From NCBI GenBank assembly GCA_009602735.1, contig WELA01003365.1, forward strand, positions 377,491 to 441,361: DNA of 63,871 nt, given 5' to 3'. Positions 18,289 through 36,579 of the stretch are shown one piece after another. Source of the stretch: Mesotaenium endlicherianum. Lineage: Eukaryota. The position numbers and the translations under genes were made by a program. Position 1 is the first letter of the stretch, and each line of letters opens with the position of its first letter. Below the pieces are notes generated by a model. It was not told the origin of the DNA and did not search any database. It was given only the letters and a program-made list of their open reading frames with translations.

Positions 18289-18820
18289 TAAGGGAGTGTG
18301 TACTCTCTAGAGTGAGCACCTCAAGATTGTAATTTGGTAGGAAAACAACTAATGAAGTCTAACCCAAAAGATCACTGAAAGCACATCATGATCTTCAAGA
18401 GTAGTCCTATGCAGTCACCGAGTTATGGCTCAGATGGTGCTCATATACAATACTAATAAATCCTAAGTGTACTTTATCAAGCTCGCGGATTTGTATGCTA
18501 ATGGCTAGAGGTTTTTGGAGTCGCGAAGAGCCAACAATGTCACCTTTGGGCACATTGAGTCACAAAGTGGTGGGATTCGCTAGGGGCCGATAGGTGGCGC
18601 GGACTAGATCGCGGATATCTCGCTCGATACTTGTCCAAATGGCGTGTAACCGATGCCGTTCGGAAGGTGACGCAAAGCTCGACACCTTGGCGACTAGGAA
18701 TGCTAGTAAAGGTCAACATATGAATGCGTGCAGCAAGCTCAAAGTAAGACTTGCTATGGCAAAAGCGGAAATGCATGCGGCCTTATGGCCAAAAAGAAGG
18801 TCAGCTGTCGAATGTTTTAA
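18289..18820 (-). repeat. 3' LTR of element A (internally deleted)
   Basis: 18289-18409 matches 35644-35764 and 18410-18745 matches 36237-36579; the 472 bp between those right-hand blocks is missing here. Its first ~75 bp (18745-18819) recur at 18212-18286. Confidence 0.8.
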
Positions 18821-18835
18821 TTTCCCCCTCAGCTC

Positions 18836-19021
18836 TCAGTCTCCAGCTGAAGAGCTGATAATGCTATTGCTAGCTAACTCTGAGCAGTCACTACAGAACC
18901 AGTCTCTTGCAGGAACGCGCTCCAGAGGGGGGTCAAGGCAGCCGATGTGGAAGCCAAGGTTGCAGCTGTCGCAGAGCAGTAACTTGGCCTTCTTGCCACG
19001 GCTGTGGCAGATCTGACACAC
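18836..19021 (-). pseudogene. PHD finger at the C-terminus of element A pol
   Basis: CQIC...LLLCDSCNLGFHIGCLDPPLERVPARDWFCSDC is a C4-H-C3 PHD consensus. It is in frame with the integrase tail but separated from it by TGA at 19022-19024. Confidence 0.92.
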
Positions 19022-21028
19022 TCAATTCTTGGGCGGCCGCGCGTCGCGGGGACGGACCTGCGCATCAAAGTAAGGAAGGTGGCATGGTCCACAATTCTTC
19101 GTGTGGTCCTTGTGAAGACGGCCATCTGCGCCTTCCAACTCCAGTACTCCCGACGCCAAGGCACGCTTGACGCGTAGGATGACTGGCGAGCTGCTGGTGT
19201 CAAGGGTGTTCTTTGTCTGGCATCGCAGGTACACGTAGTCACCTGCGGAAAATTGCAACACCCGAGGACAATAGGCTCCTCCACGAGTCATGGCATACCT
19301 GAGCGTGTCGCGATGTTGAGCGATACTGAGGTTGTCCATGGCCATGGGCATCAAGCGCTGGAACAGCTGAGCTCGTAGCCCGATAAGAGCACTCCATTTG
19401 TCGGGACTGTCTAAGTCCAAGACACTCTCGGCCACGGTCCTGGCTGCGGCGGGCAGGATTGGCTGGCGTCCATAAAGGAGGAAGTAGGGAGAATGCAAGG
19501 CCAAGGAGGCCTGGCAACTGCACCTGTATCCCATAGCCAGCTACGGGAGTGCGTCGTCCCAATGGGTGCTGCCGTGGGTTAGGCAGTACTTGCGCAACCC
19601 CAGCTTGATAGTCTGAATCATGCGCTCTACAAGACCGTCAGCCTGGGGGTGATCGCGGGAGGTAGTGCGGTGGTCAATCATGGAGCGCTCCAGCAGCTTT
19701 TTAAAGCTGCCCTAGAACTCCTTGCCCTGGTCGGTTAGCACCTCAGCGCAGCCGCCAAACCAGCTAAGGACCTGATCAAGGAACGCTTGAGCAATCCCCT
19801 CACTGGCCTTACTGGGCAAGGGCACGAGCTCGATCCACTTGGATAAGTGCTCCATCATGACCAAGATGTAGAGGTTGCCTCGGCGGGACTTGGGTAACTC
19901 CCCAGCCAAGTCCAACGACCACCGATAGAAGAGCCCTTGAATGGGCAGGTTGCTGAGGGCAACAATGCGCGCTGTGAAGCTTGAGCGCACACGATCACAG
20001 AGAGTGCAGCTGCTGACAACGTCGGCCACGACCTTAGCCATGCCATGCCACCAGTACTCTGCCTGCAGCAGGCTGAGAGTGCGCTTGACACCGAAGTGTC
20101 CAAGGGCCTCATGGACAGTGTGCACCAGCTGGCTGCGTATAGCAAGCTCGGGGACCACAAGGACGGAGCCGTCAGCCATCACCCGCCTCAGTCGACCCTT
20201 TATGAAGACGAAATCCCGGCTGCGCTTGAGGACGCGGTTGCACTCCCTCCCGTCCATGCCTAGCGCCAGCTCCTTAGCAGCGACGTACTGCAGCAACGCG
20301 CCATTGTCCCACACGTCCTTGGGTCCACACTGCCAACTGTCCTGCTCTGTTGCTGCTGCCAATGCCAGACGCCGCGTGTTGACCACCACCAGGTCGCGGT
20401 CGATGAGTCCCGCGGTCTGCGCATCACTGTCCATCGTGAAGGCCAAGAAGGCAGCCGCATGCCAGGCCACTGACTTGTCCTCATCGTGTCTGACCACGGT
20501 CAGATCCTTGGAGGACGGCAGCGGGTTACAGCTGAGGCCGTCGGCGTCCATGTTGGTCGAGCCTGGGCGATGGTGTACGTCAAATGTGTACTCCTGCAGA
20601 ATGAGTGCCCATCGCGCGTACTTGCCTGTAAGGCGCTCTGACGTCATGAGCCACTTGAGCGACTGATGGTCGGTAACGAGGCGAAAGTGGGTGCCGTGGA
20701 GGTACTGCCTGAAGTGCACAATCGCCCAGATCGCTGCCAGGCACCCCCCTCGTAAGAGCCATAGTTGGCCTCGACGCGGTTGTTGCTGCGGCTAGCGTAC
20801 GCCACCACGTGCTCGCAACCGTCGTGCTCCTAAACCAGCACTGCTCCTAGCCCTGCCTGCGACCAGTCGATGTGGAGGATGATGAAGGGCTTAGTGTGGT
20901 CAGGTCGTCGTAGCACTGGGGCGCTCACCAGCAGCTCCTTGAGCTTATCGAACGCCGCCTGCTGCTCTGCTCCCCATTCGTAGGCCACCCCCTTTTGCAG
21001 CAAATCGTTGAGTCGCTTAGCGAGCTCG
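19022..21028 (-). pseudogene. Element A RNase H and integrase
   Basis: RH: HVVAYASRSN, HFRQYLHGTHFRLVTDHQSLKWL. Integrase Zn finger HEALGHFG...CTLC; DDE core WSLDLAG...VLTDQGKEF...QADGLVER; tail SPYFLLYGR. Confidence 0.9.
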
Positions 21029-35594: not shown

Positions 35595-35630
35595 ACGCTG
35601 AAGACTCTAATTGCGAGCAGGCAAAGAGAT

Positions 35631-35644
35631 ATCTTTTTAAAAGT
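35631..35644 (-). promoter_or_regulatory. Non-tRNA primer-binding site of A, complementary to the predicted transcript 5' end
   Basis: - strand ACTTTTAAAAAGAT pairs with ATCTTTTTAGAAGT (35949-35936): 13 Watson-Crick pairs plus one G:U. Confidence 0.65.
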
Positions 35645-36579
35645 AAGGGAGTGTTTACTCTCCAGAGTGAGCACCTCAAGATTGTAATCTGGTAGGAGAA
35701 CAACTAATGAATTCTGGCTAAAAAGATCACTGGAAGCACATCATGATCTTCAAGAGTAGTCCTACGGCAGGGTTTAAGCTGTGACTTTGCTCACCACTTG
35801 TGAAGTTCCTCAAGTGACAGGAAGCCTGGAGGGCTTGCTCTTCACAAGAGAGAGACTAAGTGGTCTTGAAAACACAAGAGATAAAAGTGTAAGCTATGCT
35901 GACAATCTCTGTGACTTACAACTGGCATAATGGGGACTTCTAAAAAGATGTCCTTCTAAGGGCATCTACTGCTATATACTCCCTGCAGAATCGGCGCGGA
36001 AGGCGGCGGATACAATGCACACAGTCCCACCAGGATGCTTTCGTAGGTCCACGAAAGTAGAGGCAAAGCAAGTACTAGCTCTCCTATTGGCTAAGCACAA
36101 CACACACCAATCAAATATAGTGCAAGCAAGTGGATGCATGGCTCTCGTTGGCGGAGCTTACCTCGAGTAATGCTTTCTAGATAATGCCTCAAAAGTAGAT
36201 GGGAAACGTGAGGAAGCTTCCTCTAAGAATGAGTGATGCAGTCACCGAGTTATGGCTCAGGTGGTGCTCATATACTATGCTAATACATGCTAAGTGTACT
36301 TTATCAAGCTCGCGGATTTGTATGCTAATGGCTAGAGGTCTTTGGAGTCGCGAAGAGCCAACAATGTCACCTTTGGGCACATTGAGTCATAAAGTGGCCT
36401 TTGGCGGGATTCGCTCGGGGCCGGTAGGTGGCGCAAAGTAGATCGCGGATATCTCGCTCGATACTTGTCCAAATGGCGTGCAACCGATGTCGTTCGGAAA
36501 GTGACGCGACGCTCTACATTTGGGCGACTAGGAATGCTAGTAAAGGTCAACATATGAATGCGTGCAGCAAGGTCAAAGT
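35644..36579 (-). repeat. 5' LTR of element A (outer end not resolved)
   Basis: Matches the 3' LTR blocks; contains - strand TATATA at 35978-35973 and a CA initiator at 35950/35949. Confidence 0.8.

Follow-up and report, generated by a model that had tools for sequence, protein, structure and literature searches.

The window analysed here is a stretch of 63,871 nucleotides from the streptophyte Mesotaenium endlicherianum (GenBank assembly GCA_009602735.1, contig WELA01003365.1, positions 377,491 to 441,361 of the forward strand), and all coordinates below are counted from its first base. It holds a Ty3/gypsy retrotransposon, here called element A, on the minus strand at 36579-18208; all coding signal between the long repeats of the element lies on that strand, to which its features given below also belong. 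Element A codes, in order, for gag, protease, a Dnmt3-like DNA methyltransferase (DNMT), reverse transcriptase (RT), RNase H, integrase and a PHD finger, and is ~11.4 kb long once two foreign insertions are left out of the count. An earlier note, made from the sequence alone, had proposed that a Gypsy element at 36579-18289 combines four features into one system, namely the DNMT, the PHD finger, a set of GPPGF repeats and a primer binding site (PBS) complementary to the element's own predicted 5' end, in a copy that is now dead. The element is real and the four features are present in its sequence, but its 3' end lies at 18208 rather than 18289, since the 3' repeat has a copy of an 82-base repeat, B, on either side.

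Coding domains and decay of element A

The DNMT domain occupies 29325-30365, between the protease (32754-32319) and RT (from 28947), which is where the earlier note had placed it. The Pfam family PF00145 (DNA_methylase) matches the open reading frame (ORF) at 29325-30248 with an E-value of 5.5e-9 (36.3 bits against a cut-off of 22), while motif I (30296-30261) sits upstream of that ORF, beyond an in-frame stop at 30251. The catalytic loop, GWACHGYS, is found at 30053-30030 and the ENV motif at 29915-29904; motifs I, IV, VI and VIII follow each other in the usual, non-rearranged order, as in Gypsy-DNMT3 domains. The closest solved chains are those of DNMT3A (2.7e-15), DNMT3C and DNMT3B, with DNMT2 far lower (9e-5). 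When 16 such domains were aligned, the catalytic Cys and the Glu of ENV were invariant and the arginines of the RxR motif were invariant or nearly so. Between DNMT and RT lies a 30-base tandem repeat of 2.6 copies (28970-29047).

Integrase was located at 19025-20158, with an HHCC zinc site (20113-19997), a DDE core and a C-terminal region, and is interrupted by stops at 19714 and 19543. Its Pfam matches are Integrase_H2C2 (8.2e-16) and rve (9.8e-10), and the Pol of element A follows the Ty3/gypsy order, its integrase being of the DDE type and having an HHCC zinc site. Alignment with guide proteins confirmed the succession of protease, DNMT, RT, RNase H, integrase and PHD. No tyrosine recombinase family was matched by Pfam in any ORF scanned. 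At the C-terminus of integrase Pfam gave no chromodomain match, and a PHD finger of the C4HC3 type stands there instead (18884-19018), in the frame of integrase, beyond a stop at 19024 and ahead of a natural stop at 18838-18836. The match to PF00628 (PHD) has an E-value of 8.7e-13 (48.5 bits against a cut-off of 24), so that the PHD finger claimed to follow integrase is indeed found there.

All C4HC3 ligands of this finger are present. The solved fingers nearest to it are those of KMT2D, KMT2C, CHD4, UHRF1, KAT6A, PHF21A and AIRE, most of which, we presume, bind the H3 tail with unmethylated K4. PHD fingers that read their ligand with an aromatic cage are marked by a cage tryptophan before the His, and the finger of element A has a Gly at that position. 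Judged by these residues and neighbours, the finger appears to resemble readers of the unmodified H3 tail most closely.

The remaining domains are those of an ordinary Gypsy element. The gag region (33877-35564) contains two CCHC knuckles, one at 34638-34597 and the other, decayed, at 34566-34540, together with a stop at 34979 and a frameshift; its zf-CCHC match (E 0.0033) falls under the Pfam cut-off. The aspartic protease (32319-32754), with DTG at 32655-32647, is split by a frameshift, and its match is likewise under the cut-off (E 0.0016). RT is in two parts, the first at 28349-28947, with a frameshift and a stop at 28432, and the second at 27244-27627, with YIDD at 27534-27523, a stop at 27582 and an RVT_1 match of 2e-7. 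RNase H (20582-21032) gave Pfam matches of 4.6e-13 and 4.7e-17 and is broken by a stop (20832) and a frameshift (near 20749).

A long, G+C-rich, low-complexity linker at 30366-32318 separates protease from DNMT and holds the GPPGF mini-repeat that had been counted as a component of the system. This repeat, at 31638-31537, has two perfect copies and a further two that are degenerate (GPIGF and GLLGF). Tandem Repeats Finder, at scores of at least 30, reported no repeat at that stretch, Pfam had no match in the five long frames inside the linker, and the motif was absent from all 235 proteins and all 80 loci that were compared as relatives. The linker itself is ~2 kb long in element A, as against ~0.45 kb for the corresponding gap in relatives. 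GPPGF is private low complexity and not a feature of the family, and this part of the proposed system falls away, while DNMT, PHD finger and self-complementary PBS do stand in one element and, as described below, recur together in its relatives.

The copy is dead, as had been stated. Eight premature stops were counted (34979, 30251, 28432, 27582, 20832, 19714, 19543 and 19024), frameshifts affect gag, protease, RT and RNase H, and two foreign insertions, of 6.2 kb and 0.7 kb, both interrupt RT. The larger of these is an unrelated Gypsy element nested in RT (21033-27244, 6212 bases, minus strand), which is complete, younger and ordinary, with gag, protease, RT, RNase H and integrase between long terminal repeats (LTRs) of 745 bases that are 98.4% identical, and with a CTGAA target duplication. 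The smaller is an insert of 721 bases at 27628-28348, with no strand assigned, of which 27628-28218 is common to 38270-38895; with an inverted copy at 16804-17134, this repeat has three copies in the window. C-terminal integrase fragments of another Gypsy element of the PHD-type integrase group, at 37703-37988 (plus strand) and 16682-16855 (minus strand), adjoin the copies at 38270-38895 and 16804-17134.

Split repeats, element ends and the predicted self-primer

Element A is bounded by split direct repeats, in the layout A1 … B1-A2-B2, with a polypurine tract (PPT) ahead of B1. The 5' repeat, A1 (35644-36579, 936 bases), is 91.6-91.7% identical to the 3' repeat, A2 (18289-18745, 457 bases), and holds a piece of 470 bases (36235-35765) for which A2 has no counterpart. 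Repeat B, of 82-84 bases, is found on both sides of A2: B1 (18740-18823) is 92.9% identical to B2 (18208-18289), which forms the 3' end of the element, with a terminus uncertain by ~10 bases. The polypurine-like tract, GAGCTGAGGGGG, lies directly before B1 at 18824-18835. A third B upstream of A1 and a partial A after B2 were looked for by local alignment, and scores were no better than those of shuffles.

Other copies in the same genome were followed in contigs from four runs of one sample. In these copies the 470-base piece adjoins position 18411 (8-11 contigs per run). Their similarity to the window extends past B2 to 18165; since the depth there exceeds the depth in B2, these results suggest that the stretch beyond B2 is a different flanking repeat. 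A 120-base piece of repeat A (18286-18415) reached a summed contig depth of 90,000-300,000, compared with 1,000-9,000 elsewhere in the element, and because of this depth we consider it common to a far more abundant genomic repeat.

The PBS predicted for element A (CTTTTAAAAAGAT, 35631-35643) directly follows A1. Inside A1 there is a TATA-like box, TATATAG (35972-35978), which would act as promoter, and 29 bases after its start begins the predicted transcript start and self-primer site (ATCTTTTTAGAAG, 35937-35949), which is complementary to the PBS. Pairing of 35643-35631 with 35949-35937 gives 12 Watson-Crick pairs out of 13 and one G-U pair, a match that was reached by one of 3000 shuffles, and no TGG of the tRNA type occurs in the 40 bases after A1. 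The self-primer site falls within the 470-base piece that A2 lacks. Among other copies in the genome, a PBS-type flank after repeat A pairs at 13/13 positions (13-17 contigs per run).

The same arrangement is common to relatives of element A. In L003, a locus from a metagenome family whose repeat sequence is unrelated, the repeat reads TATAAAAGG, and ~25 bases further on stands a 12-mer whose reverse complement is found, without a mismatch, in the 12 bases that follow A1 (12/12 pairs, reached by 0 of 3000 shuffles). From 20 copies of the A1 type we retained 18, since L028 is without the motif and L005 duplicates L007. Across these 18, predicted primer and PBS pair in 91.7% of cells, compared with at most 61.5% when the partner is slid. 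The complementarity to the element's own predicted 5' end that had been proposed from this one copy is therefore borne out.

Termini were read from other loci only, as the contigs of relatives with the second domain order described below are element-sized, with collapsed repeats. All six complete related loci consist of A1, coding region, a G-run and B1-A2-B2. In these loci A opens with TGTCATG and B closes with CACGACA, giving TG…CA termini, and the 4-mers before A1 and after B2 are identical in four of the six (GGTC, CCAA, AACC and ATAA) and match at three of four bases in the other two. The B1|A2 joint reads CA, 1-3 bases, TG, and the A2|B2 joint is the A end (PBS side) joined to the B start (PPT or G-run side). 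Where a B is present behind the coding region (31 related loci), it takes the form B-A-B in 14, B-A in one, a single B in 14 and a partial B in two. The single-B loci were considered as direct support for cutting at both junctions and then set aside: L016, with a single B, occupies the same insertion site as L012, with B-A-B, and has the same flanks and the same CCAA duplication.

The family and its known counterparts

A search with the DNMT domain against 1.84 billion representative proteins returned 1534 representatives at E ≤0.001 and 341 at ≤1e-10. Pfam was run on 54 long proteins, comprising 50 of the 67 representatives of at least 1000 residues among the best 150 and four cluster members. 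PHD was found in 32 of the 54, and most of the others stop before the position at which PHD would lie. Two architectures were seen, with DNMT either between protease and RT or between RNase H and integrase. The first, the order of element A (gag, protease, DNMT, RT, RNase H, integrase), is shared by GAQ93235.1 of Klebsormidium nitens and by two Closterium proteins; the second (RT, RNase H, DNMT, integrase, PHD) is that of a Scenedesmus pol. GAQ93235.1, in which a gag knuckle is followed by DNMT, matches the DNMT of element A at 2.1e-29 and 34% identity. The position of DNMT in Pol differs between chlorophyte and streptophyte elements, and loci of the chlorophyte type have open frames of up to 3609 codons.

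Pairing of DNMT and PHD was also approached from the other end of Pol. The C-terminal region of the element A integrase matches 67 proteins, at up to 60% identity, from sources that include Calypogeia, Marchantia, Sphagnum and K. nitens; a precomputed PHD is present in 57 of these 67, and the long matches that had no DNMT by Pfam all show one with family-specific profiles. In a single uninterrupted protein of 1260 residues (P0021), the C-terminal half of DNMT is followed by RT, RNase H, integrase and PHD. A metagenome scan yielded 80 related loci, none of them like K. nitens. Among loci in which an integrase is followed by 900 or more further bases, PHD occurs in 28 of 31 with the order of element A and in 17 of 18 with the second order, counts that are not independent because many of the loci are one element assembled repeatedly.

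Substitution rates point the same way. In decayed loci with the order of element A, the ratio of nonsynonymous to synonymous substitutions (dN/dS) was 0.44 for DNMT and 0.27 for PHD, and these domains have evolved no more freely than RT (0.42) and integrase (0.33) of the same copies; loci of the second order were not used, being saturated (median dS >2). The earlier note had named co-occurrence of its four features, and dN/dS of DNMT and PHD, as checks on its proposal; for DNMT and PHD both checks came out in its favour. A quick-search tree of 33 integrase rows placed element A in a streptophyte group (SH-aLRT 92), nearest to P0012 and a Calypogeia protein, with the K. nitens-like integrases as a separate group and PHD-less proteins nested inside the streptophyte group on a long branch.

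Some relatives carry further modules. P0007 (JGI, 1302 aa) combines a C5 DNMT domain (578-648) with a Dam-like N6-adenine methyltransferase domain (1094-1173), and recalls the dual-methylase retrotransposons of a 2026 preprint. Certain chlorophyte-type elements, as seen in P0141, P0153, P0160 and loci of the second order, add a Tudor domain like that of PTM/DIR17 after PHD, or a G-patch between DNMT and integrase.

Retrotransposons that carry a DNMT are known from one charophyte and from dinoflagellates. By sequence, element A belongs to the published streptophyte Gypsy-DNMT3 lineage, because its named relatives include K. nitens, Closterium, Marchantia, Sphagnum, Calypogeia and Scenedesmus. 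KnitGypsy-Dnmt3, as described in the text of the original report, carries in a Gypsy Pol a Dnmt3-type DNMT that is under purifying selection (de Mendoza 2018, PMC5890265). Element A has in common with it a DNMT inside a Gypsy Pol and the A1 … B1-A2-B2 layout, and differs from it in its host, Mesotaenium. DIRS-like repeats are noted in the legend of Fig. 4c of that paper and likewise in the reply to its reviewers. The claim that the full combination of features had gone undescribed was thus overstated, since the lineage is published, its DIRS-like repeats are noted in that legend, and a K. nitens relative has the same order of gag and DNMT. The word "PHD" occurs 0 times in the main text and three supplementary text files of PMC5890265 (text only, not the drawing of Fig. 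4c), and the text of the paper makes no mention of self-priming, TG…CA termini or target duplications. Literature searches for a PHD at the end of a Gypsy integrase, or for split direct repeats together with an integrase, gave nothing on the Gypsy-DNMT3 family beyond de Mendoza 2018, and a search for self-priming, TG…CA ends or target duplications in this family found no description. The self-priming site and the split end repeats of the family appear to be barely described in print.

Each feature has a counterpart elsewhere. Tf1 and the sushi elements, known from the work of Levin and colleagues, have no tRNA-type PBS; theirs lies against the 5' LTR and can pair with the opening bases of their own transcript. 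The element A family likewise has a PBS that adjoins the 5' repeat and is complementary to the predicted first transcript bases, with no PBS of the tRNA type; unlike those elements, it has a PHD in place of a chromodomain and its repeats are split, and its priming is predicted from sequence. With the DIRS order (DIRS1, Ngaro and PAT) it shares the split direct repeats A1 … B1-A2-B2, whereas it has a DDE integrase, the Gypsy order of domains and, in relatives, target duplications of 4 bp. As in chromoviruses, a chromatin reader is fused to the end of integrase, but here that reader is a PHD and the same polyprotein includes a DNMT. Fusions of PHD with transposons have been described as common (Grau-Bove et al., 10.1101/2021.11.30.470311; Craig et al. 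2021, PMC8557442). The EpiLTRs of Euglena and Cymbomonas are described as combining Dam, a DNMT4-like DNMT and a chromodomain in one Pol, and the same preprint lists the streptophyte Gypsy-DNMT3 elements as a separate acquisition (10.64898/2026.05.21.726589); several epigenetic modules in one Pol are thus common to both, with a Dnmt3-like DNMT and a PHD as the pair found in the element A family.

Elsewhere in the window, the only clear piece of a host gene seen is an exon at 63218-63835 (minus strand) of a gene for a VTT/TVP38-family membrane protein, 93% identical to a Mesotaenium endlicherianum protein labelled Mesen1 in EukProt; from this match the host is a Mesotaenium-like zygnematophyte. 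An open frame of 1357 codons at 53529-57599 (plus strand) is enriched in A, G, R, S and E, contains polyQ and polyA runs, and gave no Pfam family and no usable Atlas match; this frame may be an artefact of low complexity, produced by a stretch rich in purines and in G+C.

Proposed mechanism, alternatives and meaning

We read element A as a decayed Ty3/gypsy element of a Dnmt3-carrying family of the green lineage, with predicted self-priming, a PHD finger that would likely tether integration to nucleosomes and a DNMT that would likely methylate the new DNA, and we give this reading a probability of roughly 60%. Transcription would start ~25-30 bases after the TATA box, from which the start is predicted. 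The first 12-13 bases of the RNA would then pair back onto the PBS and serve as primer for the minus strand in the manner of Tf1. By analogy with chromoviral integrases and with the ADD domain of DNMT3, the PHD finger would keep either the integration complex or the DNMT on chromatin unmethylated at H3K4, and the substrate of the DNMT would be the cDNA or the new insertion. Methylation of its own cDNA by the element and integration guided by histones, both raised in the earlier note, are predictions.

Several observations weigh against this reading, or against parts of it. Covariation between primer and PBS was not significant: a double change is seen in one pair, and the measures obtained were matched by 374-447 of 500 shuffles, so that what the sequences offer in support of the pairing is conserved complementarity, not covariation. 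In its catalytic loop the DNMT of element A reads ACH where relatives have PCQ or ECQ. The DNMT domain of the K. nitens Gypsy-DNMT3 gave no methylation in yeast, a result that its authors call inconclusive; human DNMT3B likewise failed in that assay (de Mendoza 2018, PMC5890265). PHD is truly missing from P0232 and P0230, full-length relatives with the order of element A, and from the Closterium protein P0123, and must therefore be dispensable in some lineages. At the ends of element A itself no clear TG…CA termini or target duplication could be made out, and at least some single-B forms (L016 among them, given the insertion site it shares with L012) represent deletion between B copies or assembly collapse. 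Three RNA runs, with 6-24% of each read, had no reads in most internal bins of element A, while those that did match covered only pieces of its repeats and all differed from the present copy; this says little beyond an absence of abundant element A expression in those samples.

That DNMT and PHD are chance captures, or products of a nested-insertion chimera in one copy, with no role in the element, is what the two foreign insertions within the span and the death of this copy might lead one to suspect. We consider this extremely improbable, as dozens of loci and proteins across several green lineages repeat this order of domains at like spacing, some of them in single open frames, the PHD is in frame with integrase, and both domains have dN/dS values like those of RT and integrase. 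Priming by a tRNA or tRNA fragment, in ordinary Gypsy style, would make the complementarity of the PBS a by-product of A/T-rich sequence. The paired stretch is indeed A/T-rich and partly palindromic (TCTAGA in relatives), and its covariation is not significant. However, TGG is absent within 40 bases after the repeat, the match is reached by so few shuffles (1/3000 in element A and 0/3000 in L003), and the same geometry is found in two families with dissimilar A repeats, although a short motif is common to their PBS cores; tRNA priming is accordingly very unlikely in our view. Another alternative is that the DNMT has been kept for something other than methylation of element DNA and acts on RNA, on host DNA, as a decoy against silencing or as a non-catalytic module. 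The yeast result for the K. nitens domain favours this (PMC5890265), but that assay also failed with human DNMT3B, the catalytic Cys, ENV and RxR are conserved in the 16 aligned domains, and the nearest solved relatives are the DNA methyltransferases DNMT3A, 3B and 3C, with DNMT2 far behind. We judge it unlikely.

How the split repeats arise is a question on which the evidence divides. They could form as in DIRS, Ngaro or PAT, from an RNA running from A1 into B2, with the inner B1-A2 joint as the template or splint by which the ends are restored and no integrase cut at a joined-repeat junction. The A1 … B1-A2-B2 layout is of the DIRS type, as the legend of Fig. 4c and the reviewer reply of PMC5890265 have it. 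Against this route stand the DDE integrase and the lack of a tyrosine recombinase, the TG…CA inverted termini and 4-bp target duplications of relatives, the canonical places of the PPT before B1 and of the PBS after A1, and an A2|B2 joint that equals the two predicted cDNA ends. We regard a DIRS-like origin as possible, though rather doubtful. In the scheme that forms part of our preferred reading, the PPT before B1 would prime the plus strand, and the repeat unit made by reverse transcription would therefore be B+A; the two cDNA ends would join to give the A|B joint; and integrase would cut the CA-NN-TG palindrome at one B|A joint of the joined-repeat intermediate, leaving A-internal-B-A-B. 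A second product that this scheme predicts, A-B-A-internal-B, was not seen among the 31 loci, a point that counts for the DIRS-like route, and we put the scheme forward as tentative. Taken to its full extent, it would have a widespread green-lineage family integrate from a circle-junction-like intermediate with its att palindrome inside the repeat unit, which would create split direct repeats with TG…CA ends by a route that is neither the canonical LTR route nor that of DIRS; the same Pol would combine a Dnmt3 writer with an H3-tail reader, after the model of host DNMT3 and its ADD domain. In this full form we hold the reading to be fairly improbable.

Our preferred reading, of a self-primed Gypsy element with a methyltransferase and a histone reader, extends the Gypsy-DNMT3 lineage to Mesotaenium, with named relatives in liverworts, peat moss, desmids and chlorophytes. 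In this lineage the DNMT is nearly always paired with a PHD on integrase, which mirrors the combination of DNMT3 and ADD domain in the host, and the pairing provides a concrete, testable idea of how such elements may choose their landing sites and mark them. At the ends, the PBS touches A1, the PPT touches B1 and the A|B joint equals the two predicted cDNA ends, and relatives have TG…CA termini and duplications of 4 bp; how a geometry of this kind is replicated is a puzzle open to biochemistry. The anatomy added here therefore makes questions of both replication and targeting in this family testable.

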